DNA of 64,000 bases from Eledone cirrhosa (Eukaryota): NCBI GenBank assembly GCA_964016885.1, contig OZ024743.1, positions 57,288,001 through 57,352,000 on the forward strand. Reading direction: 5' to 3'. Positions 2,251 to 52,577 of the stretch are shown here, piece after piece. The notes under the pieces were generated by a model. The model saw only the letters and a list, made by a program, of their open reading frames with translations, was not told the origin of the DNA and did not search any database. A program made the translations under genes and the position numbers. Each line of letters opens with the position of its first letter. The stretch's first letter is position 1.

Positions 2251-2472
2251 CCAGACGTGTGTAACATCGCGGAGAAGTTTCCGTTAATTTATGTAAGAAA
2301 AAAAAACGTAAGTTTTCAGTTAAATTTTATATTATTGTGTAACTTGACCCCCGTCTGGACCTTCAGGTGGTGGGTCAACTCATTTTCGCCCCTACAGGGG
2401 CGAAATATTCGTTTGAAAAAATTTTTTCTCCATCGAATTTTTGAAAAATATCGTAAGAAGTTTGATAACGTT

Positions 2473-4363: not shown

Positions 4364-4396
4364 TTTATTTTCTTCTTTTAACTTTTCAGCACCAAC

Positions 4397-7300: not shown

Positions 7301-7732
7301 CTGCAAAAAAGATCTGTCCGAGGTGCGTGCGAGACGAAGAAACCGTCGCGCACGCATTCATACACTGCTCGGGCGTCACCGACCTGTGGAGCTATGTAGA
7401 ACGACTATTGTCGCGGGTGGGACCAATCCGGTTGACCACCGAGTCCATTGTCATGATCCAACCGCCACCCTCCTTCAAAAACGAAGGAGAGGCGGTTTTC
7501 ATTTGTGTGATAGCTATGGCGAAAGAGGTTGTATGGTGGACAAGGTTGAAAGGGCTGAGGTCAGACACCTTTCTCTCCGGCCAACAACTGATTCTTTTTT
7601 TTCAAATACCACTTTGGAAGAAGAATCAGGATGGAAAGAGAGGTGCTGTACCCCAGCAAGTTTTATGAAAGGTGGGTGAAAGTGGCGAGAATGGCCCGAG
7701 TGAATGGGCCTTCTCTCTATAACAGCCTGTAG
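4397..7732 (+). pseudogene. Tx1 copy C ORF2 (APE endonuclease-RT-CCHC), frameshifted
   Basis: APE motifs NVRGL, ESR, YAP, GDWN, YLD and SDH; RT motifs NFRPITLLN, QGCPLS and YADD. Split across ORFs 4397..5473, 5430..6095, 6168..7100, 7006..7263 and 7327..7668. Confidence 0.92.
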
Positions 7733-7940
7733 GTTGAGGAAAAGGAGGAGAGGCAGGGAGTACAAACTCTTCGTACTCCTGGAGTTGTGTTACCCATATG
7801 AACTGTCTCCCCCTAATGGGGAAAATCGACTAATTTTTAAATTGCATTTGTGATAATATTTTACACGTTTTTATTGTATGTAAACTTCCTCCTTTGTATT
7901 TGTCCCCTTCTTTTGTGCCCCTGTGGCTAATAAAGAAACA

Positions 7941-17891: not shown

Positions 17892-20800
17892 TCAGATATT
17901 CAGGACGTATCGGAGGGTTCTTGCTGTTCCAAGCAAGCATGCCCTTTGAAGCGTTCCAAAAAGCGTGAAGGGGCCGATTTTCTTTAACCATCCCTGGAAA
18001 CTTTTGGAGATAGTCCCCAGTGCGCCTATGACAATCGGGATCACTTTGACTTCATGGCAGTTCCAAATCCTTTTCACCTCCCACTTTAGGTCCTGGTATC
18101 GGTTAATTTTCTCCCTCTCCTTCTCTTGCACTCTCGTGTCGAACGGGCAGGCCACATCCACAATCAGACACGATCTTTTTTCTTTGTCCACAACCACCAG
18201 GTCAGGTCTATTGTGTTCCAGTTTTTTGTCCGTCTGTATCCTAAAATCCCACAGCACCTTCACCTGATTGTTCTCCATCACCGCCTCTGGCCTATGCTCA
18301 TACCATTTCTCAGAATGTGGTAAATTGTTTACTTTGCACAGGTGCCAGTGGATCACCCTGCCCATCACATCGTGTCTCCAGCCCTTATAGTGGGTCTGGG
18401 CTAGGTGTTTACACTCGGACACAATGTGAGCCACAGTCTCCTCTCTCTCTCCACAGATCCTGCACAGTGGGCTAGCCTCCTCCTTGTAAATATGGTGCTT
18501 CAACCACTTCGTTTTGAGGGCCTGCTCCTGTGCAGCCATTAGCATTCCTTCTGTAGCCTTTTTGAGGTCTCCTCTTCTCAACCAGTTCCGTGTCTGTGGA
18601 TCTCTAAATTCAGTTTTCTCAAAGAAGGTACTATGAAGGGATTTTCCCTTAAGGCTGCTCTTCCTCCTTGATGTTATTTCCTCCTTGGACATCCCCTGGC
18701 CTACTGTCCCCTCCTTCAGTACAGTTCTGAGCATTGGCTCCTTACTATAGGTCACGTATTTGTATAGGTTGTTTTTCTCCATCTGAACACAGTCCTCTAT
18801 GCTGATAAGACCTCTTCCACCCTCAGATCTCCTTAGGTAGAGTCTATCGACATCACTCCTCTTGTGGAACATGTTGTAGATAGTCAATAGCTTCCTAGTC
18901 TTCCTATCCATTTCTTTTTGTTCAGCAACATTCCATCTCAGAATTCCCGCACTGTACCTAATAATAGACACAGCTCGGGAATTTACTGCGCTTATGGCAT
19001 TTCTGCTGTTCAGATGTGACTTCAATACGCTCCTTACTCTCCGAATGTATTCAATTCTTAACAATTCCTTCATTTTTTTGTTCTTTATGCCATCAGCCTC
19101 CACAACGCCCAAATACTTGTATCCTTCCTCAGAGTCAATTTCCTTTATCATCTCACCTGTTGGTATCTGGATCCCGTTACTTCTGCTCAACCTACCCCTC
19201 CTCATCACAATGACTCCACATTTACCAATACCAAACTGCATACATATATCACTGCTGAAAATACGGACAGTGTCAACAAGCACATCCAACTCCTTCTCAC
19301 TTTTCCCGAAGAGCTTAAGATCGTCCATGAAGAGGAGGTGATTGATGGTAAGCTCTCCCCTTCCCAACTTGTATCCTGCTCTCACTTTTCGCAGCATAAT
19401 GGTCAAGGGCATCAGGGCAAGGACAAACAACAGAGGGGACAGGCTATCTCCCTGGAAGATACCTCTCTTGATCTTCACGCTTCCCAAGGATACTCCAGTT
19501 GATGTCAACTCTGTCTCCCAGGACCCCATACTCCTGCCTAGCAACTGTCTGATGTTATCTGCCACCCTGAAGATCTCCAGGCTTTTGGTGATCCAAGAAT
19601 GAGGCACCATGTCAAATGCCTTTCTGTAGTCTATCCATCCCATGGCAAGATCAGTGTATCTCCTCCTGCAATTCCCCATTACCATCTTATCAATAAGTAA
19701 CTGGTCCTTTGTACCACGTGACTTCTTTCGGCATCCTTTCTGTTCGTCCGGTAACAAGTTGTTTGTGTGGAGGTGATGGTAGATTTCCTCAGACACAATG
19801 CTCGTCAACAGTTTCCACATTACGGACAGACATGTGATAGGTCTATAGTTGGTAACATCATTACCCTTGATTCGGTCTTTCATTATCAGAACTGTGGTAC
19901 CTTTTGTCAACCACTCTGGCACCTCACCCGACACCAAGCAGTCATTGAACATGGCCGTCAGCTTCGGGTGGAGGGATGTTAAATGTTTAATCCAATACCC
20001 CTGCACACCATCTGGGCCTGGTGATTTCCAGTTGGTTAGTTTTTTGGCCTGCCCCTTAAGAGTTTCAACTGTGATACTCAAATCAGTTTGTTGTTGTGCC
20101 TGCTCACCGATCTCCCTCTGTACTGTCTCAATCCACCCTGCCTGGACATTATGTCTAACATCCTGCTCCCATATTCCTCTCCAGAATGTTTTAGTTTGTT
20201 CCGCCTCAGGGATCAAGTCGTTGCCTCTTTCTTTCCCTTCAAGCTGTCCAAACAGCATCTTCTGGTTGTTGTCGAACATGCGGTTCTGTCGATACTGGCT
20301 GACTCTGTTCTCGTATCGCCTGATTTTTGCACTCTTTGCTACAATGCGTTGCTTCAGTTCCTCTATGATAATATTTAGCTTTTTCCTCCTAGTTTTGTAC
20401 TTTATTTCCAGTCTATTTTTAGTGTCTATGTTTTTTAGTGTCCCATTCAGTAGGGACTCAAGCTTTCCAATGTCATTTCTCATTTCCCTGATTTGACCAC
20501 TCAGTCGTTTCTTCCACCAAGGCTCTGCTCTTTCTTGTCTGTTGTTTCCTCTCGCTTTTATACCAAGTAGTTTCCTCACCGTATTTGCTGTTGCTTTGAG
20601 GATATTGTTGCACTGGTGAAGGCTCCTCGCCTCAAGGTATGGGATGACTTTTTTTACCTTAGCTGTTGTTTCTTTTAACTTTTTCCTGTCTACAAATCTT
20701 AGGTTCATAGGTCTCCCACTATCATTGTTCAATTCATCTACCACTAAGTTTAGGATATCTACCAAATCTTGTCCTAGCCCGTCAGCATTCATCTCCTCAG

Positions 20801-21317
20801 TGGCCGTATCTCTGTTCCAGGTATTATTTATCTCAGCATTCAGATCATTGTTTGTATCGGGTGGTTTCTCCGTTCTCTCGACCTCTTCACCTTCATTTCC
20901 CACTGGCTCGTTTGCCTGGCATACTCCACCCTCCATCTCCAAGCTAATCTCTCTGCCCAGTTCCTCCAGTTCCAGCTCGCTTATCCACCCATTAGTTCTT
21001 ATTACCCGAGCCTGCCCGGCCAGTTTTTGTTCATCTAATTTAAATGGACCAATCTCGTTCCAGATGTTATGCATCCTTTTCCTATAGCCTTTCTCCTTGG
21101 GGTTACTCTTCAGGTAACATTGCATAACAGTTCTATTCAATTCTTTCGTCCAGTTGGTTCTGGTCCCTTTCCTTCTTCTTCTTCCTCCGACACCAGCAGT
21201 ATTTGGTTGACAGCCAGGTCCCTGCTGCTGAGCCAGGGAGCACCTGTTGGGTGAGAGTCTGTCACATGACATTCTAGTCTCCATTTCACCGTTATTCGAA
21301 CTGTTTAGGTTCGACAT
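17892..21317 (-). CDS. Reverse transcriptase with C-terminal CCHC finger and restriction-like (PD-D/ExK) endonuclease, 1141 aa
   Basis: Motifs include [58 protein letters not shown] and RPDLVV..VDVACP..EREK. No stops or frameshifts. Confidence 0.95.
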   Translation of the reverse strand: MSNLNSSNNGEMETRMSCDRLSPNRCSLAQQQGPGCQPNTAGVGGRRRRKGTRTNWTKELNRTVMQCYLKSNPKEKGYRKRMHNIWNEIGPFKLDEQKLAGQARVIRTNGWISELELEELGREISLEMEGGVCQANEPVGNEGEEVERTEKPPDTNNDLNAEINNTWNRDTATEEMNADGLGQDLVDILNLVVDELNNDSGRPMNLRFVDRKKLKETTAKVKKVIPYLEARSLHQCNNILKATANTVRKLLGIKARGNNRQERAEPWWKKRLSGQIREMRNDIGKLESLLNGTLKNIDTKNRLEIKYKTRRKKLNIIIEELKQRIVAKSAKIRRYENRVSQYRQNRMFDNNQKMLFGQLEGKERGNDLIPEAEQTKTFWRGIWEQDVRHNVQAGWIETVQREIGEQAQQQTDLSITVETLKGQAKKLTNWKSPGPDGVQGYWIKHLTSLHPKLTAMFNDCLVSGEVPEWLTKGTTVLIMKDRIKGNDVTNYRPITCLSVMWKLLTSIVSEEIYHHLHTNNLLPDEQKGCRKKSRGTKDQLLIDKMVMGNCRRRYTDLAMGWIDYRKAFDMVPHSWITKSLEIFRVADNIRQLLGRSMGSWETELTSTGVSLGSVKIKRGIFQGDSLSPLLFVLALMPLTIMLRKVRAGYKLGRGELTINHLLFMDDLKLFGKSEKELDVLVDTVRIFSSDICMQFGIGKCGVIVMRRGRLSRSNGIQIPTGEMIKEIDSEEGYKYLGVVEADGIKNKKMKELLRIEYIRRVRSVLKSHLNSRNAISAVNSRAVSIIRYSAGILRWNVAEQKEMDRKTRKLLTIYNMFHKRSDVDRLYLRRSEGGRGLISIEDCVQMEKNNLYKYVTYSKEPMLRTVLKEGTVGQGMSKEEITSRRKSSLKGKSLHSTFFEKTEFRDPQTRNWLRRGDLKKATEGMLMAAQEQALKTKWLKHHIYKEEASPLCRICGEREETVAHIVSECKHLAQTHYKGWRHDVMGRVIHWHLCKVNNLPHSEKWYEHRPEAVMENNQVKVLWDFRIQTDKKLEHNRPDLVVVDKEKRSCLIVDVACPFDTRVQEKEREKINRYQDLKWEVKRIWNCHEVKVIPIVIGALGTISKSFQGWLKKIGPFTLFGTLQRACLLGTARTLRYVLNI

Positions 21318-21384
21318 TTAAACACTCTTATCGAGGATTGGCGAATGTATGGCTACATAACCACCGGTGAATTACTGGTGGTGA

Positions 21385-22362
21385 TATTGGTGGTGAAATT
21401 ATCTTTAGTGAAATTATCGTTAGTCGCGTATATGTGTTGACATTTACCCATAATATTGGAATTAAACATCTTGTTAAAACTAAAACTTGATTTTGATTTT
21501 TTTTTTTTGATTTTGACCAGGTCATTAATTCAGTCTATTTATTTATTTTGATGTTTTCCTCTTTTAGTGGGAATTCTACAATGTAGCAGGGGGTAGCGGG
21601 AGAGAATAGCGGCGGTAGTGATATTGAGGCAGCGGCGGCGGTGGCGGTGCTGTGCTAGCAGCAACTAGCAGGAGGTAGTGGGAGAGAATAGCGGCGGTAG
21701 CGATAGTGAGGCAGCGGTGGTGGTGATGTGGTCGTATTACTGTAGTGATGGTGTTGAAGTTGGAGTAGAAATTTGAGTCGACTTGACCAGAGTTTTCATC
21801 GTGGTAGTGGTGGTGGTATTGGTGGTGAAATTATCTTTAGTGAAATTATCGTTAGTCGCGTATATGTGTTGACATTTACCCATAATATTGGAATTAAACA
21901 TTTTGTTAAAACTAAAACTTGATTTTTATTTTTTTTATTTTTTTTTTTTATTTTGACCAGGTCATTAATTCAGTCTATTTATTTATTTTGATGTTTTCCT
22001 CTTTTAGTGGGAATTCTACAATGTAGCAGGGGGTAGCGGGAGAGAATAGCGGCGGTAGTGATATTGAGGCAGCGGCGGCGGTGGCGGTGCTGTGCTAGCA
22101 GCAACTAGCAGGAGGTAGTGGGAGAGAATAGCGGCGGTAGCGATAGTGAGGCAGCGGTGGTGGTGATGTGGTCGTATTACTCTAGTGATGGTGTTGAAGT
22201 TGGAGTAGAAATTTGAGTCGACTTGACCAGAGTTTTCATCGTGATAGTGGTGGTGGTATTGGTGGTGAAATTATCTTTAGTGAAATTATCGTTAGTCGCG
22301 TATATGTGTTGACATTTATCCATAATATTGGAATTAAACATTTTGTTAAAACTAAAACTTGA
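21385..22362. repeat. About 435-bp tandem repeat (about 2.25 copies) in the Dong 5' region
   Basis: Units start at 21385, 21817 and 22257 (TATTGGTGGTGAAATTATCTTTAG). They are near identical except for poly-T length. Confidence 0.92.
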
Positions 22363-22860: not shown

Positions 22861-23702
22861 CTTGAATCTCAGTCATTGATGTTAGTTAACTGGAAAGTTT
22901 GTTGGAATGAATATCAAGCCACTACCTGCAGCCTCAGATATTCAGGACGTATCGGAGGGTTCTTGCTGTTCCCAGCAAGCATGCCCTTTGAAGCGTTCCA
23001 AAAAGCGTGAAGGGGCCGATTTTCTTTAACCATCCCTGGAAACTTTTTGAGATAGTCCCTAGTGCGCCTATGACAATCGGGATCACTTTGACTTCATGGC
23101 AGTTCCAAATCCTTTTTACCTCCCACTTTAAGTCCTGGTATCGGTTAATTTTCTCCCTCTCTTTCTCTTGCACTCTCGTGTCGAATGGGCAGGCCACATC
23201 CACAATCAGACACGATCTTTTTTCTTTGTCCACAACCACCAGGTCAGGTCTATTGTGTTCCAGTTTCTTGTCCGTCTGTATCCTAAAATCCCACAGCACC
23301 TTCACCTGATCGTTCTCCATCACCGCCTCTGGCTTATGCTCATACCATTTCTCAGAATGTGGTAAATTGTTTACTTTGCACAGGTGCCAGTGGATCACCC
23401 TGCCCATCACATCATGTCTCCAGCCCTTATAGTGGGTCTGGGCTAGGTGTTTACACTCGGATACAACGTGATCCACAGTCTCCTCTCTCTCTCCACAGAT
23501 CCTGCACAGTGGGCTAGCCTCCTCCTTGCAAATATGGTGTTTCAACCACTTCGTTTTGAGGGCCTGCTCCTGCGCAGCCATTAACATTCCTTCTGTAGCC
23601 TTTTTAAGGTCTCCTCTTCTCAACCAGTTCCATGTCTGTGGATCTCTAAATTCAGTTTTCTCAAAGAAGGTACTTTGAAGGGATTTTTCCTGAAGGCTGC
23701 TC
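22860..23702 (-). mobile_element. R4/Dong element, 5'-truncated copy 2
   Basis: CCHC plus RLE and 3' UTR nearly identical to copy 1. Bounded by (TTC)n(TTA)n at 22772-22859 and 23703-23771. Confidence 0.93.
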
Positions 23703-23723
23703 CTTCTTCTTCTTCTTCTTCTT

Positions 23724-23754
<31 letters not shown>

Positions 23755-23771
23755 TTATTATTATTATTATT

Positions 23772-24993
23772 CCTTGAATCTCAGTCATTGATGTTGGTTA
23801 ACTGGAAAGTCCGTTGGAATGAATATCAAGCCACTACCTGCAGCCTCAGATATTCAGGACGTATCGGAGGGTTCTTGCTGTTCCCAGCAAGCATGCCTTT
23901 TGAAGCGTTCCAAAAAGCGTGAAGGGGCCGATTTTCTTTAACCATCCCTGGAAACTTTTGGAGATAGTCCCCAGTGCGCCTATGACAATCGGGATCACTT
24001 TGACTTCATGGCAGTTCCAAATCCTTTTTACCTCCCACTTTAAGTCTTGGTATCGGTTAATTTTCTCCCTCTCCTTCTCTTGCACTCTCGTGTCGAATGG
24101 GCAGGCCACATCCACAATCAGACACGCTCTTTTTTCTTTGTCCACAACCACCAGGTCAGGTATATTGTGTTCCAGTTTCTTGTCCGTCTGTATCCTAAAA
24201 TCCCACAGCACCTTCACCTGATCGTTCTCCATCACCGCCTCTGGCCTATGCTCATACCATTTCTCAGAATGTGGTAAATTGTTTACTTTGCACAGGTGCC
24301 AGTGGATCACCCTGCCCATCACATCATGTCTCCAGCCCTTATAGTGGGTCTGGGCTAGGTGTTTACACTCGGATACAATGTCAGCCACAGTCTCCTCTCT
24401 CTCTCCACAGATCCTGCACAGTGGGCTAGCCTCCTCCTTGTAAATATGGTGTTTCAACCACTTCGTTTTGAGGGCCTGCTCCTGCTCAGCCATTAACATT
24501 CCTTCTGTAGCCTTTTTGAGGTCTCCCCTTCTCAACCAGTTCCATGTCTGTGGATCTCTAAATTCAGTTTTCTCAAAGAAGGTACTATGAAGGGATTTTC
24601 CCTGAAGGCTGCTCTTTCTCCTTGATGTTATTTCCTCCTTGGACATCCCCTGGCCTACTGTCCCCTCCTTCAGTACAGTTCTGAGCATTGGCTCCTTACT
24701 ATCAGTCACGTATTTGTATAGGTTGTTTTTCTCCATCTGAACACAGTCCTCTATGCCGATAAGACCTCTTCCACCCTCAGATCTCCTGAGGTAGAGTCTA
24801 TCGACATCACTCCTCTTGTGGAACATGTTGTAGACAGTCAATAGCTTCCTAGTCTTCCTATCCATTTCTTTTTGTTCAGCAACATTCCATCTCAGAATTC
24901 CCGCACTGTACCTAATAATAGACACAGCTCGGGAATTTACTGCGCTTATGGCATTTCTGCTGTTCATATGTGACTTCAATACGCTCCTTACTC

Positions 24994-24994
<1 letters not shown>
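23772..24994 (-). mobile_element. R4/Dong element, 5'-truncated copy 3
   Basis: Open 377-aa C-terminal frame at 23846..24979. The 5' junction runs into (TTA)n at 24995-25043. Confidence 0.93.
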
Positions 24995-25043
<49 letters not shown>

Positions 25044-25251
25044 GGCGACCTACGTAGTAAATCGTATCATTGTGAGCTCCGCAAAGGTTTGTTATTTTCG
25101 TTTGTTAAAAATTGTCATTTATGGAAAATTTTATTGTTAACTGTTTATAAGCGCACATACATTGTTTTCCGAAAAGGACACCAAAAAAGATTGGGGCCTT
25201 GTGCCCAAAATTTAAACTTTTATTATTATCAAAAATTTCTTTGAAAAAAAA

Positions 25252-27239
25252 ATGGCTAATTCACCTCTGCACCAAGCAGCTGAAAGCCTTCCTCACAAAT
25301 TAACACCTCACACCGACACCACCATTGTAAATGTTACTACATTTGCCAATACAAAAAAAAATATAAGCAGTAGCAATATTTTAAATTTGTATCAGGCAGA
25401 CATTCAATTCACGCCATTACCAATGACTGCAGGTGTTAAAGCCTCCACCACCACCACCACCGCGTCAACCACCACCCCTACCACCACCGCGACAACAGAA
25501 ACAAAAGAAGAAAAAAATAAATTAACTCGTGATGTCGAAACGAAATCAAGCAAAATGGACTCTTCCCCACCAAAGACGACTGACGTCACCACCACCACAA
25601 CTGAAACTAAAATTAATATTAACACAAATAACGATAGCAACAACAACAACAATGACATTATAAAACCGACCCTCAGTTTCGCCAGAGTAGCAAAACAGTT
25701 CGAAGCATTTACGGTAACTCAGGAGGATTTAGAAAATGCCAAACAAATGGTAAAGAAAGATGGGTACAGGGTCAGCCTCACCCCCCCACCTAATAAAATG
25801 GAGCATCAGCGCCTATGCACCGTGTCGTATAGAACAATAAATGTAAAATCGCGCCGAGTGGAACGGGCATCCGAGTCCCAAATCCAAAAAGCTTTGGGAC
25901 ATGTGTGGGCAAGAAAAACCCACATCAGACGTGGGCAGAAGTATGGAACCGTGGACGTGTTCTTTGAAACACCAGAGGAGGCTAGAGAACACTCCATGGC
26001 CCCATTAAGAAGTGACGACTTCACACTCGTCCCAAGCTATTGTGGCCAGAGACTCGTAAAGATCAGGGTGACCCACGTTCCACCGGCCATCGAAATTCCC
26101 TGGCTAATAGCGGCCGTCCTCGCCGGCATCGAAGCCAACACAAAAATAATAGCAATAGCAAAAGAAAAGCAGGAGAACTGGTCCGGATCTGGGATGGAGC
26201 TCCTGATCCAAGCGGACCAAAAAAGCGTTGAGGAGATCCCAGAGGTAATAGACCTCACTGACGGCAGCCACCTCACGGTAATTGTCGAGGGCAGAAGACC
26301 TAGGTGTGTCGTTTGTGGTGAAGGAACCCACCTAAGGGCTTTCTGCCCTCAGGCTAAAAGGTTGAGGCCACCTCTCCTACCCACCCCAGTGACACAACCA
26401 TCAACACCACCAGTAGCAGAGATGGCAGCAACAACTGTAGCAGCAACAACAGAAGCAACTATAACAGCAACAACCGCAGCAACAGTAGCAAAACCAACAC
26501 CACCACCACCACCAGCAAAACCAACACCACCACCACCCAACGCTTCAGAACTAGCACCAGCGCCTACACCATCCACCACGCCACAACCAAAACTAACGCA
26601 TGTGGAGGATTTTCCACTCCCCGGCCTATCACAACTGGAGACAGATTGTGACGACGAGGAGTGGGAAACGATATCCGGAAAAAAAAAGGAAACCAAAAAA
26701 GAAAAAATTCTATTCCTTCCCCCTCCAAAAACAAAATACAGAGGGAAACAAATAAATTAAGAAACAAAAAAGTTAGGACAGATATGCCACCATCCACACC
26801 AGCATCACCAACCCCATCAACCCAAACACCAACACCATCACCATCATTAACCCCAACACCATCATCACCTACACCACAAAAGTCACCAAAATGCGAAACA
26901 GAAACAAACCCACAACAAACGCAAACAAAACAAAACAACCAAAACGATACACACTACACAGCATTAAATTTGAACAACAAGCAATTATTACACTACATCC
27001 AACACAACACCAGCATCACAGAAAAAGACTACACAACAACCCCAAAATTCACACCACCTCCACACATACAAATCACTCGCATCACACAGAAAACGTACAT
27101 GACACTAAAACAAAAATTCCCCAAAGACATCGGAGACTTCCGACAAGCACTCTCCAGGAGGATTTATAAGGACATCCTTCCTGAGGAGGCCACAAGCAGT
27201 GAAAAGGATGGAAAAACCGTCCTTCCCTACGAGAAGTAA
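25252..27239 (+). pseudogene. Tx1 copy D ORF1 (zinc knuckle), with one frameshift at an A-run near 26680
   Basis: CVVCGEGTHLRAFC knuckle. The C-terminal domain homologous to copies C and E continues in ORF 26661..27239. Confidence 0.85.
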
Positions 27240-27278
27240 GGTAAGTGGTCTTTCCCATCTTTTCCACTCCTTTTCAAC

Positions 27279-30200
27279 ATGACCTCACTCAGAATAGGCA
27301 GCATAAATGCGCGTGGCTTGGGGTCGTCATGGAAGCAGGGCCACCTGCTCAACGACCTCATGTCACTAAACATAGATGTAGTGGCCATCAGCGAGACCAG
27401 AATCTCCGAAGCACAGGCTTTCGCACCGATCCTCGGCGGCTACGATGTGTACGCATCTCCCAGCCGTCCGGGATCGGGGGGAGGAGTTGCTGTGCTTTTT
27501 CGGAGAGGTTTGGATCTTGCCATACGGGCCATCTTCATGGACCCAGAAGGTAAGTTGGTGGTGCTGGACGTGACCAGCGGAGACGGCCAAGCTTTCAGGT
27601 TAGTGGTCGTCTATGCCCCGACAGGAGCAGGGCGGCCTGATTTCTTCCGGCGTCTGGAGACCTTTCTTGGAACGTCCCGCTCTTTAGTGTTAGTGGGAGA
27701 CTGGAACGGGATTTAGATGCACGCTGGGATTGTGTGGGATTAGTGGATAGGGAAGGAGGGTGCAAGAGTCTCACCAACCTGCTCAGACGTTTTGAACTGT
27801 CTGACAGGTACCGAATGGATTTCCCGAATGTACCAATGTGGACTTGGACAAATCGCATAGGGTCATCCAGATCATATCCAGATAGAGTATTTTGTAGGGA
27901 AATAGATAGGTCTAGCATAGGCTGTCCACAATTCAAGATAGTCAGCTACACGGACCACAAATTCGTGATCTGTGTGCTTGACTTAGATAGGCTTCATAGA
28001 CGAGGACCCGGCTACTGGAAGCTAAACGCGTCCTTACCAGCGCGCAAGGCCTACAGAGACCGGATTAGCGAACTAGTTAAGCGGGCGTTGACGGGCGCCA
28101 TCGTCAACAACAAGTGGTGGTTTGCTCTGAAAAGAGCAATTAGAACAGAGTCCATTAGGTTTAGTAAGACTTTAGCAATAGAGAAAAATAGAGCAGAGGG
28201 AGAATTAGTTAGAAAATTAGATGAGGCGCTTAGCAAAGGCATCGCGACCGACGTACTTGCGGCGAAATTGGCCCTTGACCAATTCTTCAATGCAAAGCAC
28301 GAAGGCTGCGTTGTCAGAGCTAGGGTGCGTGCTCTCAGACACGAGGGGACGAAAGCCGTTCAATGGGCCCGAGTGGCGGAGGCGCGCCGTGGCAACAAAG
28401 CCACGATCCGGTCTTTGGTGGACCACGACGGGCGCATGCTACTCGATCCCGGGCAAATGTGTGAAGCTTTTCAGCGACACTTCGCTCAACTGTTCGGGGG
28501 CAGTGGCGAGCCGGATCGAGGGATGGACTTTAGTGTCTACCTCGACGGACTGCCGCGGCTTTCGGCCACTGAGGCGGAGTGTTGCGAAAAGCCGATAACA
28601 ACCGCTGAAGTACGGGAGGCAATGACTAGTTGCACAAGGGGTAAATCGCCTGGTTTGGATGGTCTGCCCTATGAACTTTACGTACAAATGCCAAACTTGT
28701 TCGGAGGCCTCTTGGCGGACGTCTACTGCAACTGGCAACAGAACCGGAAAATTCCCAGCTCTGTGAGCCGAGGAGCGGTGGCGCTGCTGAGAAAGGATCC
28801 GAACAAGGGGGATAACATAGATAATTTTAGGCCCATAACTCTGCTAAACACAGAGTTCAAGATTTTGGCGAAGGTGCTAGCAAAGAGGTTGGCGCTTGTC
28901 GTTGGTGGTCTGGTGGGAGAGGCACAGACATGCGCCATTCCCGACAGATCCATCCACGACAACCTCCACCTCATGCGATACATCGTAGAGAGGGTAGCTA
29001 GGGAACCTGGCACGGGTGGGTCTTTGATCAATTTAGATCAGTCGAAAGCCTTCGATAGGGTCGACCATCGTTACCTAGAGGCAGTCCTGAGGGCGGCTGG
29101 CTTTTGGCCCATCTTCAGAGGCTGGATCGCTGCCATGCACAGCAACATCTGCTCTGTAGTGAGAGTGAACGGTCACCTTTCGGAACCGTTCAACATTATG
29201 CGCTCGGTCCGCCAAGGATGTCCCCTCTCGTCCCTATTGTACGTATTGACTCTCGAGCCATTACTGCACAAACTGGAGACGTTGAGGGGGATCCCGCGCG
29301 AACTAGGATGCGGAAGATCCGTGTCAGCATATGCCGACGATGTCACCGTAGTGGTGTCGAACGCCAAACACATCGAGGCGATCGACACTACACTAAGAGA
29401 ATACGAAGCGGTGACAGGAGCAATGATCAACCAGGAAAAGTCAGTGGGCCTGCAGCTCGGCACCTGGAGAGGCAGGTCCATGCTGTCCAACAGCGTCGTC
29501 GGGCGCTGGACAGACGGACCGGTTAAATTGGTAGGGGTCTGGTTCGGTCCAGACCTCCAGACGGACAAAAACTGGGACGAGGTGACGAGCAGGGTGGCTT
29601 CTCTCACCCAGAAATGGGCCGAGAGGAAGCTATCCCTGAAAGGTCGAGCGGAGGTGGCTAACGCGTACATCGCGTCCGTCATCTACTACCGCCTGACCGT
29701 CTTACCTTGTCCAAAGCCCCGCCTGACTGCGCTGGAGCGTTTGCTCTTTCGCTTCTTGTGGAAGGGACGCGCTCCGATGGTCAGGCGGTCCATCTGCTGT
29801 CAACACCCGCTACGTGGAGGGCTGGGCATGCCGTGGCTGATGATGCGCAGGCACGCGCTCAGGCTACGACATCTCCACCTCTTCCTCGACGGTGATCAGG
29901 TGTGGTCGCCGTTTGCTAGACACGTTTTTCCCCAGCTCGTCTCCTTGACGGAGCTGCAGTCCTGGGTCAAGCGAAGACCGAGAGGGAGCGCTTGGAGACT
30001 GGAATGTCTTCAGGCGCTCACAGCTCTCGACCAATCGGGCAATGTGATCGGTGGAAACTCCACCTTGGCGTTCTATAGGAGATTAGTGGAGGGGAAGAGC
30101 GACAACGTACTTGGAGAAACTCTAGGCGTCGACGAAAATCAACTAGCCAATCTCTTCGGAAGGACTTTCGGGCCGGGGCCTATGGACAACTTCCAGAAAT

Positions 30201-30697
30201 CCCTGGCCTGGCAGTGCTACCGGGGTGCTTTGCCAGTTCGGGATAAACTTTACAGGCATGGAGGTGCCGTCAGCCGGGCATGTCCGAGATGCGCACAGGG
30301 CGACGAAACCGTCCTGCACGCACTCGTCCAGTGTCCGAGCATTGCTGACTTGTGGGTTTATGTCGAACACCTGCTGTCACGTGTAGGACGGATCCAGCTA
30401 TCAGCTGAGTCCATCGTGAGGATTGCCCCGCCCTCTTCCTTTAGCCGGGAAGGGCAGGCCGTTTTTATCTTTCTGGTGGCCATGGCGAAAGAGATAGTAT
30501 GGTGAACACGTTTGAAAGGGCTGAAGACGAGCACTTACCTCTTCGGTGATGCCCTGATTAACTTTTTCAAATTTCATCTGAAAAGGAAAATCAGGGTAGA
30601 GAGGGAAGTGCTCTCTTCCCAGCATTTTGTTGAAAGATGGGTGAGAGAAGCAAGTATGGCCCGAATGAATGGGCCTTCTCTGAGTATGTGTCTGTAA
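27279..30697 (+). pseudogene. Tx1 copy D ORF2 (APE-RT-CCHC), with a frameshift near 27711 and a TGG>TGA stop at 30503
   Basis: Motifs include NARGL, GDWN, TDH, QGCPLS, YADD and CPRC..ETVLHALVQC. Confidence 0.93.
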
Positions 30698-30976
30698 ATT
30701 AAAGTTGGAAAACTGGGAGAGGGCACTTGCCCTGGTGGCCAGGGCCACTGTGGTCTTTTAATGGGCTTTCTCCACAAATGTCCCTCGGAAGTCTCCCCCC
30801 TATTGGGGAATTTTTCTTTGTTATTTTATTTAATCCTCTATTTTTTTTTACACGCAGAAATGCCCATTTGTACCGTCCTGTATTGTCCTGTACTGTCCTT
30901 AATGTCTACTTTATGTGAACCCTTGTGGTTAATAAAGAAAACATTATTATTATTATTATTATTATTATTGTTATTA

Positions 30977-33008
30977 CTCTTTGAGTCTCAGTCATTGATG
31001 TTAGTTAACTGGAAAGTTTATTGAAATGAATATCAAGCCACTACCTGCAGCCCCAGTTATTCAGAACGTATCGGAGGGTTCTTGCTGTTCCCAGCAAGTA
31101 TGCCTTTTGAAGCGTTCCAAAAAGCGTGAAGGGGCCAATTTTCTTTAACCATCTCTGGAAACTTTTTGAGATAGTCCCTAGTGCGCCTATGACAATCGGG
31201 ATCACTTTGACTTCATGGCAGTTCCAAATCCTTTTTACCTCCCACTTTAAGTCCTGGTATCGGTTCATTTTCTCCCCCTCCTTCTCTTGCACTCTCGTGT
31301 CGAATGGGCATGCCACATCCACAATCAGGCACGATCTTTTTTCTTTGTCCAAAACCACTAGGTCAGGTCTATTGTGTTCCAGTTTCTTGTCCGTCTGTAT
31401 CCTAAAATCCCACAGCACCTTCACCTGATCGTTTTCTATCACCGCCTCTGGCTTATGCTCATACCACTTCTCAGAATGTGGTAAATTGTTTACTTTGCAT
31501 AGGTGCCAGTGGATCACCCTGCCCATCACATCATGTCTCCAGCCCTTATAGTGAGTCTGGGCTAGGTGTTTACACTCGGATACAATGTCAGCCACAGTCT
31601 CCTCTCTCTCTCCACAGATCCTGCACAGTGGGCTAGCCTCCTCCTTGTAAATGTGGTGTTTCAACCACTTCGTTTTGAGGGCCTGCTCCTGCGCAGCCAT
31701 TAACATTCCTTCTGTAGCCTTTTTAAGGTCTCCTCTTTTCACCCAGTTCCATGTCTGTGGATCTCTAAATTCAGTTTTCTCAAAGAAGGTACTATGAAGG
31801 GATTTTTCCTGAAGGCTGCTCTTTCTCCTTGATGTTATTTCCTCCTTGGACATCCCCTGGCCTATTGTCCCCTCCTTCAGTACAGTTCTGAGCATTGGCT
31901 CCCTACTATCAGTCACGTATTTGTGTAGGTTGTTTTTCTCCATCTGAACACAGTCCTCTATGCTGATAAGACCTCTTCCACCCTCAGATCTCCTTAAGTA
32001 GAGTCTATCGACATCACTCCTCTTGTGGAACATGTTGTAGATAGTCAATAGCTTCCTAGTCTTCCTATCCATTTCTTTTTGTTCAGCAACATTCCATCTC
32101 AGAATCCCCGCACTGTACCTAATAATAGACACAGCTCGGGAATTTACTGCACTTATGGCATTCCTACTGTTCAGATGTGACTTTAATACGCTCCTTACTC
32201 TCCGAATGTATTCAGTTCTTATCAATTCCTTCATTTTTTTGTTCTTGATGTCATCAGCCTCCAGAACGCCCAAATACTTGTATCCTTCCTCAGAGTCAAT
32301 TTCCTTTATCATCTCACCTGTTGGTACCTGGATTCCGTTGCTTCTGCTCAACTTACCCATCCTCATCACAATGACTCTACACTTATTAATACCAAATTGC
32401 ATACATATATCATTGCTGAAAATACGGACAGTGTCAAGAAGCACATCCAACTCCTTCTCACTCTTCCCGAAGAGATTAAGATCGTCCATGAAGAGGAGTT
32501 GTTTGATGGTAAGCCCTCCCTTTCCCAACCTGTACCCTGCTCTCACTTTTCGCAGTACACTGGTCAGGGGCATCAGGGCAAGGACAAACAACAGAGGGGA
32601 CAGACTATCTTCCTGGAAGATACCTCTCTTGATCTTCACGCTTCCCAAGGATTCTCCAGTTGATGTTAACTCTGTTTCCCAGGACTTCATACTTTTGCCC
32701 AACAACTGCCTGATGTTATCTGCCACCTTGAAGATCTCCAGGCTTTTGGTGATCCAAGAATGAGGCACCATGTCAAATGCCTTTTTGTAGTCTATCCATC
32801 CCATGGCAAGACCAGTGTGTCTCCTCTTGCAATTCATCATTACCATCTTATCAATAAGTAACTGGTCCTTTGTACCACGTGACTTCTTTCGGCATCCTTT
32901 CTGTTCGTCCGGTAACAAGTTGTTTGTGTGGAGGTGATGGTAGATTTCCTCAGACATAATGCTTGTCAACAGTTTCCACATGACGGACAGACATGTGATA
33001 GGTCTATA
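30977..33008 (-). mobile_element. R4/Dong element, 5'-truncated copy 4 (more divergent)
   Basis: 646-aa open frame at 31041..32981 running from RT to RLE. The 5' junction is at (TTC)7, 33010-33031. Confidence 0.92.
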
Positions 33009-33513
33009 ATTCTTCTTCTTCTTCTTCTTCTAGCAGTGAGAGTGTTGTTAGTATAAATATGTGAAGACGCGGGGTTCAGCTGTTAGGGTGTTTGGCTGGC
33101 AATCGAAACGGCGTGAGTTCGATTCTTGCTCGTGCATTGTGTTCTTGAGCAATATATTTAACATTTATTTCACATTTTCTCCAATTCACGCAGCTAGCAA
33201 AAAATGAGATATAACTGTAATTCAAAGAACAAGTCGTGTCAGACACTGTGTTAGGCTGAATCTCCCTGAGAAATACGTTAAGGATACAGGTGCTCGTTGC
33301 TCGTGTAGACTGTTCTGTTGGTCGAATTACTGGATCACGCTTCTTCAGAACTGATGGAGGTTCAAGACTGCACAAAAACGCTATTTTATCAAGTATTTAA
33401 AATAGTCAGGATATTGTTAGTTTAATTATATAGTAAACATATAGTTCAACATTTACTATGTGTATAGAGACATAACACAAGAGTGAGGGCTGAAAAGCGG
33501 AGTAAACTTTTTT

Positions 33514-46020: not shown

Positions 46021-46686
46021 GGCTCGGAAAAATCTTTTTCCTAAAGCTAATTTACTGTAATGAGACTATTTTGAGTTTCTAACTCAATACATGCTTTTGA
46101 TATGTGTGTGTATATATATAAATATATCTGTTAGACACGCAGTGACTAACGACAGAATGTTTTAAGTCTGTGTGTCTAATCTGTTAGACACACAGTGACT
46201 AACAACAGAATGCTTTAAGTCTGTGTGTCTGTTGTGATGACTGACATACATGCCTAGCTTGTGAATACAAATTTCAAGGGGTATCGCTGGCCGTGGTGAT
46301 GCCTCCCAAACATCTTTTGTAATGTATCGTCTTATTGGCTAATTTCATCGTCTTATTCGCTAATCAACCAACGAGAGTAATTGTTGTTCAAAAGCATCCG
46401 CCACTTTGTTTCCATGTTTATTTATCGTTTCGCTTTCGAATCTTCCTCCAGTATTTCGTCGTTTTATCATAAAAATAAGTTATATTGTTAATTTATATAT
46501 GATTCTTTAAATTTATATTAACTATTAAAAGTCTGAAAATATTTTTATACTTCTTGCAATAATATTTATAAGATCATTTATAAAATAACAATTATATAAT
46601 CTAATTACATTACAACGATAATTTATTATTAATATATATCATGTTTAACTAGAGTTATTACAAGCGTTGCCTTAAAAAAATATTAA

Positions 46687-49600
46687 ACTAGACCAGAAAA
46701 ATGCGCAAGCTCAAAAGAGCCACAGAATGTTATAATAAACCTTCAAAAGTGTGGGACTAGAGTTGTTGCTCAAAAATATTGTAAACATTATCTATCGTAC
46801 ACTAACATACATACACATGAAAAAGACATGAACAACTCCACAGATACATCTACACATAAAGTTTCACCTCGTCAAGGAACTGAGATTTCCAACACCGAGG
46901 CTAACAACGATAACAACAACAACCACAGCAACACCACACCAAAAAAAGAAAATGTCTTTCGCTGAACAGTGAACAAAAAACAAGATTTTATAAATCTTGA
47001 CATCTTCAATGCAAGAGATGTGCTCCAGCAAGGGAGAAAATTTGTAACTTTCGAAGAGAAGGGTGGGTTTAGAATTAAATCACCCCTTGAAATAAAGGAA
47101 GACACAGTTAGAAGATCAGTGACCTTTAGGACTGTGTCCAATTCCACGAGAAAGCCATTATTTGTTAGTCAAGCAGATATAGAAGCTACTTTCAAGGAAA
47201 TTCTAGCAAATATCGACTTTCTCCAACGAGGAAAACCGTACGGAAACACTTCCGTACTGTTTAAAAGCGAGGCAATTGCCCCAAAACATTCTGTGACACC
47301 AATGGTGTCAAAAGCATTCACCTTTTTCCCTACATACATGGGAAAAAGGACTAAAAAACTAAAAATAAAAAATATACCCCCAAACATTAACATCTGGTCG
47401 ATGTTGGCTGGCTTCCTAGAGACAGAAACTGATATGATTCTTTCGATACGAAAGTCTATTCGACAAAGGTGGGTGGGTACTGATTTGGAGATTCTGTTGC
47501 AAATGAGGCCGGAGAGAATCTCCAAAATACCCGAAAGAGTCGTCATCGATGATAACAACAAAATAAACATTTCGGTAGAAGGACGAAAATTTCATTGCTT
47601 TCGCTGTGGTAGCACAGCACACCTAAAAGCCTCTTGTCCTTCACAAACACACCACAACAACATCATTAAAAAAACACTATTACTAACACCAACACCAAAA
47701 CAACCACCACCACCACAAGTACAACGACAGACGAAACAAGCAACCACACCAAAACAAACAGCCACTCAACCAACAACAACAGAAAAAACAGAGACAACAC
47801 CCCTGAAGAACACAGCCCCACCCATCCCACTCCATCAAACACTACCACAAACACACACACCGAAACACCACCACCACACAACATACCCCTACCCCACACT
47901 CCTGACGATGATTATTCATCGACGGATGAAGCTGCTTCTCCTTCTTTAAGTGAAGAAGAGGGAGAGCCGCGGAAATCTAAAAAACAAAAAAGAAGAGACA
48001 CCACAAAACCCCCAAAACTCCAATCACCAACGCCAACACACAACCACAGACACAAACAACAACACAAACAACATCACAGTCAAACATCCCCCTATCAGCA
48101 AAACCAACACCAATACCACCCCAAACACAAGCACCCACCATAAAAAGAAAACTCCCGGACGAACAACAAACTAAAACAACACAACAAAAACACAAACAAC
48201 AATACGCATACATCAACACAAACAACAAGAGTTTGATGGAGGTCATCTCCCAAAACCCCAAGGTGGAGACGGAGGGCAAAACTTTCGTTAAGTCAGAATT
48301 GTCTCCACACCTTAAACTTATAAGGATTTCTATGGGAACCTATAATGACCTGAAAAATAAATTTTCACAGGACGTGGGCAACCCTTGCCAGAAACCCATC
48401 AATCGCGTCCTGTTAAAATGTTTCCCCACCCCACCCAACACCCCATCCAGCACCCAAATGGAGATTGAACAACCCGATCTCCAGGAAACGAAAAAGTAAG
48501 TGCACCTTTCGTCCTTTTTCTTCAACTCTTCTTCACCAACATGGCTAGTTTACGAGTTGGAAGCGTGAATGTGCGTGGCCTAGGGATGCCCTGGAAACAG
48601 GGCCAACTTTTAAACGACCTTAGGTTACACGGTATGGATGTGATAGCCATCACCGAGTCCAGAATCCACAACAGGCAGCAACTAACCCCCATCTTCGACG
48701 ACTTTGAGATCTACGCATCTCTCTGTCAGCCAGGAGGTGGAGGTGGAGTGGCTGTCATGTTTCGGAAGAACCTGTACGTCGAATTACAGCAAGTACACTT
48801 GGACCCGGAGGGTAGACTGGTAGTCCTAGACGTGAACAGTATTGGTGGTGGAGCCTTCAGACTGGTGGCCGTTTATGCCCCGACCGGGCAATCGCAATCA
48901 CGGCCAGACTTCTTTAAGCGTCTAGAGTCTTTTCTGGGAACGTCTCGCTCCTTACTTTTAGTGGGGGACTGGAATGGTATCCTAGATGCAAGATGGGACT
49001 ATGTGGGAGCATGTCCCAGTAGAGGGGGGTGCAACAGCCTCAAAACTTTAATCGGCCAATTCCAACTGGCCGATAGGTATCGACTGGATTTCCCGACTGC
49101 ACCACAGTGGATGTGGGCAAACCGCAGCGGGACATCTAGATCGTATTTAGATAGGGTCTTCATTAGAGAAAGGGACAAGGAGATGTTAAGTTGTCCACGA
49201 ATGCACATGGTTGCCTATTCAGATCACACATTAGTCGTCTGCTTAGTCAACCGTGATAGAACACATAAACAAAGACCCGGATAATAGAAGCTGAACGTGT
49301 CATTGCCGGTACGTAAAGCTTACAGTGAACGGATAAGTAGACTAGTAAAGCAACAATTAACGGAGCCATCGTCAACAATAGATGGTGGTACTCTCTCAAG
49401 AAAGCAATTAGAATAGAATCGATAGGGTTTAGCAGAGAGTTAGCCTTAGAGAAAAACAAACTAGAAAGAGAACTAGTAGCCAAGGTAGAGGAAGCACTTA
49501 GAAGTGGCAACGCGGCTAGAGTGTTAGCGTCGAGAACGGCACTGGACCAGTTCTTTGATGCAAAACACGAAGGCTGCGTGGTCAGAAGCAAAACACGTGC

Positions 49601-52557
49601 TCTAGGAAACGAAGGAGCGAAAGCTGTCAGCTGGGCCCGAGTGGCGGAGGCAAAAAGTGGCAACAAGTCCACAATTCGGTCTTTGAAAGACCAAAACCGA
49701 CGCGTGCTACTTGACCCCAAGCAAATGTGCGCGGCCTTTCAGCAGCACTTTGCGCGACTGTTTGAGCAGAACGACGGTGAGCCGAACGGGGCAATGGACT
49801 TTAGTTCATACCTCGACGGCGTGCCGCGTCTCTCGAACACGGAGGCCCAGTTCTGCGAAAGACCGATCACGGACACTGAAATACGGGACGCTCTGGGCCG
49901 CTGCGGGAAACGCAAGTCACCCGGTCTAGATGGTCTACCCTATGAGTTTTACATAGGCATGCCGGACTTGTTCTCTGGCGTCCTCGAAGCCGTCTACTGC
50001 AATTGGCAGCAGAACGGGAGAATTCTCAGTTCCACAGGCAAGGGCGTGGTAACGCTGTTCAGGAAAGATGAGAACAAGGGGGACGAAATTAACAACTTCA
50101 GGCCCATAACTCTGCTCAACACAGAGTTAAAGATTTTGGCCAAGGTGTTAGCGACGAGGTTGGCGCTTGTCGTCGAGAACCTGGTAGCGAAAGCGCAAAC
50201 GTGTGCAATCCCGACAAGGTCCATACACGACAACCTCCACCTCATGCGATACATCATAGAGAGGGTGGGTAGTAAACCCGGCTTCAGTGGAGCTCTGATC
50301 AATTTGGATCAGTCTAAGGCATTCGATAGGGTCGACCATCGATACTTGGAAGCGGTTCTCAATGCCGCCGGTTTCGGTTCCGTTTTCAGAGGCTGGATCG
50401 AGGCGATGCACACCAGCATCTGCTCGAGGGTCAAGGTGAACGGCTACCTATCGGAGCCGTTCGCAATCACGTGATCCATTCGACAGGGGTGTCCTCTCTC
50501 CTCCATTCTGTATGTATTGACTCTAGAGCCACTACTGCGGAAATTGGAGCTGTTGCAGGGCATCCCTCTAGAACCGGGACTGCGCAAAGCGGCGTCGGCT
50601 TATGCCGACGACGTGACGGTAATGGTGTGGAGCACCTCAGAAATCGGGGTGATCGGCAACTTACTGAAAGAATACGAAACGCTGACGGGAGCAAAACTAA
50701 ACCCGGACAAGTCTGTCGGTTTGCAACTCGGTACGTGGAGAGGCAAACCGATGACGTCCGACAGCGTCGTTGGACGCTGGACGGACGGACCGGTGAAATT
50801 GATCGGGGTCTAGTTCGGTCCAGACCTCCAGGTGGAGAAAAACTGGAACGAGGTCACGGCCAAGGTGTTTGCACTCACCCAGAAGTGGGTAGAGTGCAAA
50901 CTGTCCTTGAAAGGTCGAGCGGAGGTGGCGATCACTTTCATAGCGTCCGTCATCTACTACCGCTTGACTGTCTTGCCTTGTCCCCGTGAACACCACGCCA
51001 AGATGGAACGCATGCTCTTCCAGTTTCTGTGGAAGAAGCAGTCTCCGCTGGTGAGGAGATCCGTCTGCTGTCAGCATCCTTCCAACGGAGTGCTGGGAAT
51101 GCCGTGGCTGATGATGCGCAAACATGCGCTGAGGCTGCGGCATCTCCAGGTATTCCTCACCGACCCCAAACCGGTGTGGGCACCGTTTGTGAGACAGGCT
51201 TTCCCGCCGCTCGTCTCGCTGACGGAGCTGCAGTCCTGGGTCAAGAAAAGACCGAAAACGATGGGCGCCTGGCACATTGAATGCGCTCAGTTACTCACAG
51301 TCCTCTGGCAAGCAGGCGCAGCAATCAATGGAGACTCCACTTCGACATTCTATAGAGGGATTGTACGTTACAAGGGCGACGACGTGCTCGGAGAGACTCT
51401 GGGCGTCGAAGAGGATGAGCTCACCAGTCTGTTTGGTAGGACTTTCCGCCCGGGACCTATGGACAACTTCCAGAGGTCCCTGGCCTGGCAGTGCTACCGA
51501 GGAGCTCTACCGGTTCGTGACAAGATCTACAGGCACGGACGCCCCGGCAGGGATCCTTCCAAGAGGACGTGTCCAAGATGCGCGCAGGACATTGAAACAG
51601 TCCTGCACGCAATTGTACACTGCCCGGGCGTAACCGACCTGTGGAACTATGCAGAACAACTGCTGTCGCGTATGGGACAAATCCAGTTGACTGCCGAGTC
51701 CATAGTAAGGATCAAACTGCCAGCCTCTTTCAACTCTTTCAAAAACGAAAGAGAGGCGATTTTCCTCTGTACGGTGGCTATGGTGAAAGAAGTTATATGG
51801 TGGACGAGATTGAGAGGACTGAGGACAGATGCCTTTCTCTCCGGACAACAATTGATTCCCTTCTTTAGAAGGAGAATCAGAGTGGAGAGAGAGGCACTGC
51901 ACTCCAGTAAATTTACTGAAAGGTAGGTGAATGAAGCGAAAATGGCCCGAGTGATTGGGCCTTCTCTGTTTATAAGCCTGTAGGCTGAAGAAGAGAAGAC
52001 AGGGAGAAAAGAGCACTTGCACAACACACTCCTGGAGTTGAGGGTTGTTCTATCGACGGGGTATTAAACAACCCATTTGTGGCGCCTCCCCCCTATTGGG
52101 GATTTCGATTGTTGTAATTGTTTGTTTTTATATTTTTTACACGACTGTATGTAAAATCCCCGGCATGTCTTTGTATTGTCCCCTTTTCTTGTGCGCCCTT
52201 GTGGCAAATAAAGAAATATATCTATCGTACACTCTGTGGCATCCTTTTATAAAAAAAGAGACTCATAACGAACTCAAGACGACACGATAATTATTTATAA
52301 TATAGAATTCGGTTTAAGTGCATTTCCTATTAATCATCACTAAACATCTAATATGAGATATTGAACATTAGCTTAAATAATTATCGAGTCGTCTTGAGTT
52401 CGTCATGAGTCTCTTTTTTTTTTATAAAAGGATACCACAGAGTGTACGATAGATAATGATTACAATATTTTTGAGCAACAACTCTAGTCTCACACTTTTG
52501 AAGGTTTATTATAACATTCTGTGGCTCTTTTGAACTTGCGCATTTTTCAGGTCTAGT
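46687..52557. mobile_element. Fold-back/MITE (arms about 175 bp, spacer about 90 bp) whose left arm is interrupted by Tx1 copy E
   Basis: 46687-46803 plus 52234-52292 is the reverse complement of 52381-52557. The ends read ACTAGACC...GGTCTAGT. Confidence 0.85.
46804..52218 (+). mobile_element. Tx1-like element copy E (related to A-C), slightly 5'-truncated and inactivated
   Basis: ORF1 remnant (CFRCGSTAHLKASC) ends at 48499, and ORF2 at 48541-51982 has stops and frameshifts. AATAAA is near 52207. The TSD TATCTATCGTACACT is at 46789-46803 and 52219-52233. Confidence 0.93.
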
Positions 52558-52577
52558 ATATATGTGTGTGTATATAA

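Follow-up and report, generated by a model that had tools for sequence, protein, structure and literature searches.

Target sites of a Tx1-like LINE family with a preference for TATC in the octopod Eledone cirrhosa

How long interspersed nuclear elements (LINEs) of the apurinic/apyrimidinic endonuclease (APE) type target microsatellites is described as not well understood (PMC3812793), and insertion into pure repeats hides the junction. A 64,000-nucleotide stretch of the Eledone cirrhosa genome (GenBank assembly GCA_964016885.1, contig OZ024743.1, positions 57,288,001 to 57,352,000 of the forward strand; here referred to as the window) carries a Tx1-like LINE, copy E (46804..52218, + strand), that interrupts another repeat and is flanked by a target-site duplication (TSD). 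What does such an element recognize, and how many repeat units does it need? A first-pass annotation, made by a model from the letters of the window, had answered that two TATC units suffice for targeting and that a stagger of about 15 bp would lengthen a microsatellite at each insertion. Here, we followed up this locus across the genome. We think it probable, taking all parts of the statement together, that copy E shows the normal mode of insertion of an abundant Tx1-like LINE family, in which the element 3′ end is joined at a fixed position directly ahead of TAT(C/A), duplications vary in length, and the endonuclease likely chose the site.

The empty site opposite copy E

The duplication, TATCTATCGTACACT, is an exact 15-bp direct repeat (46789..46803 and 52219..52233, both + strand), as the first-pass annotation had reported, with 0 nt of leftward extension and a match that stops at 15 bp; given the local composition, the chance of this 15-mer at a given place is ~1.4e-9. 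Where copy E is truncated, the sequence of the relative c018 is CCCATT|AACATAC; the last T of the 5′ duplicate may therefore be microhomology, so that the TSD is 14 to 15 bp. Copy E itself is 5,415 bp long, 5′-truncated by ~430 nt and broken, and it is 92 to 94% identical to natural full-length copies of ~5.8 kb. Its 3′ end (52207..52218, + strand) consists of an AATAAA signal, GAAA, and a subfamily-specific dinucleotide (TA), without poly(A).

The host of this insertion is a Helitron-like repeat (46127..52556, + strand; ~1.0 kb without the insertion), the 3′ part of which is a fold-back with arms at 46684-46803 and 52441-52560 that are 96% complementary. The uninterrupted opposite arm was said to preserve the empty site, and it does so at 52438..52458 on the minus strand, reading CATTATCTATCGTACACTCTG. 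The 18-mer around this site has 937 exact matches in the genome, and the site runs uninterrupted into host sequence in 29 of 30 loci read, the remaining one (L039) having an internal deletion. The opposite arm and the genomic matches together establish that TATCTATC was target DNA present before the insertion, not a tail, and that the LINE 3′ end joined exactly there. Copy E is the only case of a LINE 3′ end before the fold-back site (1/937 exact matches), and we rejected the idea of this site as an insertion hot spot.

The empty site bears on the possibility that the element itself encodes (TATC)n as a tail and adds it at insertion with no real target preference, as the long perfect TATC runs behind some copies might suggest (24.5 units at 2153-2250, after a family copy in the window). 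The same TATC stands in empty sites, no units are added at the fixed sites described below, and TATCTATC also occurs at the 5′ boundary of 38 of the 88 copies in the unselected sample introduced in the next section. We therefore rejected the tail for this family as largely refuted and regard it as hardly credible; long perfect tracts beside some copies are more likely products of later slippage.

The host repeat starts with TC after A and ends with CTAG before T, both in the window copy and in all five loci at which both ends were found (30 examined). A 5′ TC, a 3′ CTRR, and insertion between A and T are hallmarks of Helitrons. Its last ~340 bp form a long palindrome, 53 bp at the 5′ end of the window copy are duplicated in tandem, and three copies of the repeat recur at a spacing of 5.49 kb (L041 to L043).

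Junctions and duplications beyond copy E

Family 3′ ends were found by a 24-nt pattern search of the genome, which gave 11,282 matches; in 9,867 of these (87.5%), TATCT follows within 0 to 4 nt, so that the association with TATC seen at copy E extends to the family. As an unselected sample, we used 88 of the first 100 listed matches, which lie within the first 40 Mb of C1 and include a few near-duplicates. In all 88, the terminus is AATAAAGAAA followed by a dinucleotide that mostly depends on the subfamily (CA, TA, TT, TC, or TG), the junction lying 6 nt past AATAAA in family copies, and TATC directly continues 66 of them. The number of in-phase units past the junction was zero in 22, one in 20, two in 17, and at least three in 29. 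Poly(A) was found at none of the 3′ ends of 258 copies.

A more informative target than the fold-back site is a site with one TATC unit, CCTAAC|TATCTGTAACAC, in the part of a different LINE that encodes the endonuclease (Pfam Exo_endo_phos and Exo_endo_phos_2); we take this host, from its motifs, to be RTE-like. The string TAAC|TATCTGT is joined by a family 3′ end at 45 junctions genome-wide, or 46 with L368, compared to 3,877 exact sites; the 30 of the 45 that were read (L232 to L261) all lie in the RTE-like host. At all 46 junctions, exactly 2 nt separate GAAA from TATCTGT, and a search that allowed gaps of 7 to 30 nt found no added TATC at this site, its 12 rows being nine variants of the same junction with longer A runs and three other sites. 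Insertions at the 23 readable loci are of different lengths and come from several subfamilies. A TSD is present in 19 of them, with lengths of 7 to 19 bp and a median of 14 (12 without microhomology). Thus, at a single site, insertions share one 3′ junction and vary on the 5′ side, and one TATC unit is enough for insertion. Counting exact 18-mers only and ignoring the ages of the two host repeats, occupancy is ~9× that of the fold-back site (37 junctions with the same 3′ spelling per 3,877 sites versus 1 per 937; Fisher p = 0.006). The base at −1 is C at the one-unit site and T at the two-unit fold-back site.

To read TSDs outside pure repeats more widely, we turned to selected minority classes, namely, 3′ ends followed by exactly two units (383 in the genome), by TAT without a following C (124), and by one unit (342). 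Thirty loci were read per class, 26 of 29 over-long loci were refetched, 74 places were added, and duplicates were removed; TSDs were then called on 239 copies, a set that leaves out the one-unit hot-spot loci. We called a TSD informative if it was exact, at least 10 bp long, started 2 nt past GAAA, and reached beyond the simple repeat. Informative TSDs were found in 37 of the 239 copies, against a mean of 0.54 and a maximum of 3 in 100 shuffles of the pairing between 5′ and 3′ junctions. An earlier, looser caller with start offsets of 0 to 12 had given 53/240 versus 6.8 in shuffles and was replaced by the fixed-offset one. The 37 TSDs are 10 to 23 bp long, with a median of 15 (13 without 5′ microhomology) that the 10-bp floor biases upward. 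Human L1 TSDs are likewise variable and similar in size.

The logo from nonmicrosatellite insertions that the first-pass annotation had suggested could be built from these 37 sites. They fit Y|TAT(C/A)T: position −1 is C in 23, T in 10, A in 4, and G in none, −4 is T in 29, +4 is C in 19 and A in 17, and +5 is T in 30; in 29 of the 37, the TAT at +1 to +3 was a requirement of the search patterns. Of the 21 sites without TATC in the upstream 8 nt, 18 have a pyrimidine at −1 (background, 45%; p ~1e-4). Where TATC units stand at the 3′ junction of a TSD, the left copy matches or exceeds their number in 26 of 29 cases, and the other three lie in degenerate repeats. Other TSD-bearing insertions had been expected to carry TATC at the 3′ junction. 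Overall, this held: among the eight informative TSDs of the unselected sample, the opening sequence is TATC in six, TATA in one, and AATA in one. The family prefers TATC without requiring it. A second repeated host site, TTTCAC|TATCTTAGATAGAATC (L211, L346, and L349), received very short insertions, one with a 16-bp TSD.

How do these data bear on two TATC units as the working target, with a stagger of ~15 bp and an array lengthened at each insertion? Copy E itself fits, as do the median TSD lengths of 14 to 15 bp and the 46 of 88 unselected copies with at least two in-phase units past the junction. Nevertheless, two units proved to be neither a minimum nor a good target, with the one-unit site (C at −1) used 46 times and the two-unit fold-back site (T at −1) once in 937, with 24 of the 37 readable selected sites having zero units or one on the 3′ side only, and with TSDs that start with TATA. 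As a minimum rule, the proposal is contradicted by the one-unit data, and the different lengths and subfamilies of the 23 readable loci speak against copies of one event. The stagger is right as a median but is not fixed, given the range of 7 to 19 bp at one identical site. Rather than being lengthened in the way proposed, an array would be split, with one TSD of repeat added in total. We consider this combination of claims very unlikely as an account of the family; the copy E locus is only one ordinary example of its target choice.

Several observations count against our own reading, in addition to the limits given above on the occupancy contrast, the median TSD length, and the logo. TATC is missing at +1 to +4 from 22 of the 88 unselected 3′ ends, several of which lie in (TC)n, (TA)n, or a minisatellite. 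No informative TSD was obtained from 202 of the 239 copies, and 4 of the 23 one-unit loci have no TSD (two with loss of target bases and two with an unrelated flank; 5 of 24 if L343 is counted). Furthermore, for most copies, a nick 1 to 3 nt further to the right, with templated TAT, is possible on the sequence.

A proposed route to insertion

The observations to be explained are a 3′ end joined just before TAT(C/A), no added repeat units, no poly(A), TSDs of 7 to 23 bp (median, 14 to 15), and a preference for C or T just upstream. We propose that the APE domain opens the purine-rich strand first, at 5′-(A)GATA|R-3′, and that target-primed reverse transcription starts 6 nt past AAUAAA. The freed ...GATA-3′ end may pair with UAUC read through from the donor's flank, aiding priming, and a loosely placed second-strand cut would give the variable TSD. 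Two features point this way: base −1 is not part of the primer, so its pyrimidine bias points to the endonuclease, and the missing poly(A), despite an AATAAA 6 nt from the end, suggests priming at a fixed base. Sequence-specific nicking has been reported for the Tx1L endonuclease (PMC1950540).

Alternatively, the choice could be made mainly by pairing between RNA and primer, with a loose nuclease nicking A/T-rich DNA and only ends that pair with UAUC(U) being extended. The bases preferred at +1 to +5 (TATCT) are those of the donor's flank, poly(A) is never seen although AATAAA is present, and priming of this kind has precedents: target-primed reverse transcription with pairing-guided priming is described for L1 (PMC4014453), and pairing-guided priming is proposed for RTE (PMC6007223). 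Yet the −1 pyrimidine and the −4 T bias lie on that side of the nick which is not in the primer, the 46 one-unit junctions show no extra units from out-of-register pairing, and TSDs starting with TATA and AATA occur. We regard pairing as unlikely to be the main determinant and prefer site choice by the endonuclease.

Under endonuclease choice, (TATC)n arrays would be favored since each unit would be a full site, and an insertion would split the array, add 7 to 23 bp of repeat in total, and leave sites beside the new copy. TSDs that regenerate sites next to the element would explain tandem runs. Another family 3′ end lies at most 130 nt upstream of 24 of the 88 unselected copies, and spacers between tandem members (n = 27, window copies included) measure 2 to 99 nt, with a median of 24. 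In the window, two further copies stand in tandem (859-2152 and 2251-7940, + strand), and the 3′ end of a third lies before them (to 845), with TATC-repeat spacers of 13 and 99 nt.

Copies c079, c080, and c082 (L134 and L136) sit in a minisatellite. The two full-length ones among them start with CTATCTA(A/T)CTCTCTTTCTG after a TSD other than TATC, from which it follows that the element 5′ end itself carries TATC-like bases, which were perhaps copied from the donor's flank.

Relatives, neighbors, and known systems

In copy E, an open reading frame 1 (ORF1) remnant with a CxxCxxxxHxxxxC knuckle (46966..47949, + strand) precedes ORF2 (48541..51983, + strand; APE endonuclease, reverse transcriptase [RT], and zf-RVT), the end of which was placed by comparison with the ORF of the relative L119. 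ORF2 is broken by stops at 49282, 50472, 50811, and 51924 and by frame changes. The zf-CCHC match was weak in L119 (E 0.089, below the cutoff), with the motif visible in ORF1, and a Pfam search with family ORF1 matched neither Transposase_22 nor RRM; in the Tx1 clade, a CCHC knuckle in ORF1 would be expected in place of Transposase_22 (PMC5203782). Copy E ORF2 matches Exo_endo_phos (1.5e-14), RVT_1 (9.3e-12), and zf-RVT (1.1e-5; 26.4 bits, just below the 27.5 cutoff, which two relatives exceed). Its linker-RT piece scores 128 to 148 bits against three full-length fish proteins and 61 against a fragmented fourth, from a cluster set that includes YTX2/TX1-named members, compared to 86 bits against human L1 and 34 to 37 against R2. 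ORF2 is ~30% identical to the fish Tx1-named proteins tested, and the only Protein Data Bank match to the endonuclease was a weak one, to a bacterial exonuclease III. The Tx1 assignment made at first pass is thus supported by similarity, rather than by a tree with named families.

A sister Tx1-like family copy lies inside (ATT)n (25044..30942, + strand), with ORF2 pieces 53 to 69% identical to copy E; the nearest named relative of the sister family's ORF2 is an Argonauta hians protein (69%). This family has 886 3′ ends in the genome, and all 30 that were read (L377 to L406) are followed by ATT runs of at least 6 units, one of them interrupted. Here, (ATT)n may be either tail or target. Several sister copies lie in ATT runs beside another LINE, and L404 to L406 form a tandem run. 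In the hairpin-loop region of the endonuclease, located with the help of PMC1950540, the sequence is NRSGTSRS in the TATC family and NRIGSSRS in the ATT family, a difference at two positions. It is conceivable, and we suggest it tentatively, that the sister families switched targets between (TATC)n and (ATT)n via a few endonuclease residues and that the TATC family reads a degenerate purine-strand site of ~6 bp, bypasses poly(A) by priming at a fixed base on read-through repeat RNA, and seeds TATC tracts at both ends.

Copies of another LINE family, on the minus strand (17892-21317, 22934-25066, and 31041-33029), end at (TAA)n runs; its 1,141-amino-acid ORF with RT is only 25 to 28% identical to the Tx1-like ORF2, and its context makes it a candidate Dong/R4-like family. 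A 440-bp tandem repeat (21376-22362; 2.3 copies, 97% match) adjoins a start of this LINE.

With its 46 insertions, the non-repeat site allows an invariant 3′ junction to be told apart from a variable second cut, and no tail is seen there. The two natural sites, one frequently and one rarely used, are ready oligonucleotide substrates, and the sister family with its different repeat is material for domain swaps.

Known microsatellite-targeting Tx1 families are Kibi in (TC)n, Koshi in (TTC)n (PMC4494074), and crocodilian families in (TTCC)n/(TTTC)n (PMC4494074, PMC3812793). The octopod family resembles these as a Tx1-type APE LINE with a microsatellite preference and differs in its repeat, (TATC)n, in its octopod host, and in its use of isolated one-unit or TATA sites; we liken them by target type, not by branch membership. 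Where PMC4494074 looks for more than 20% of flanks in one repeat type, 87.5% of the 3′ ends here are followed by TATCT, and 29/88 have at least three in-phase units. Thirteen recently active L1-Tx1 families are reported from Octopus vulgaris, in a text whose consulted portion on them is silent about targets (PMC13282606). The literature that we searched contained no (TATC)n-targeting Tx1 family, although Repbase, Dfam, or older primary papers may already list one; judged by its sequences, the TATC family would be a new (TATC)n-preferring addition to this known kind.

Other members of the group target transposons: Tx1L of Xenopus targets Tx1D, Tx1-Mar targets Mariner-N4_AMi, and a 16-bp TSD is expected for SINEU-3 (PMC4494074, PMC1950540). 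Shared with Tx1L and Tx1-Mar are insertion into another transposon with a clean TSD and tandem insertions that sandwich a TSD; in contrast, the Helitron-like host is not preferred (1/937), and the recognized sequence is short and degenerate rather than long and unique. SART1Bm is likewise an APE LINE that targets a tandem repeat, and its minimal unit number has been tested: three TTAGG units are required, as is a long poly(A) (PMC7265360), whereas the TATC family uses one unit and poly(A) is absent from all copies examined. R1Bm-EN makes its cuts in the two strands at defined positions (PMC1919474), unlike the second cut proposed here, which would be loose. With human L1, the TATC family shares a short consensus, target-primed reverse transcription, and frequent 5′ truncation, but in L1 the nick is at TTTT|A and priming takes place in poly(A) (PMC4014453), whereas the TATC family would nick GATA|R and start at a fixed base.

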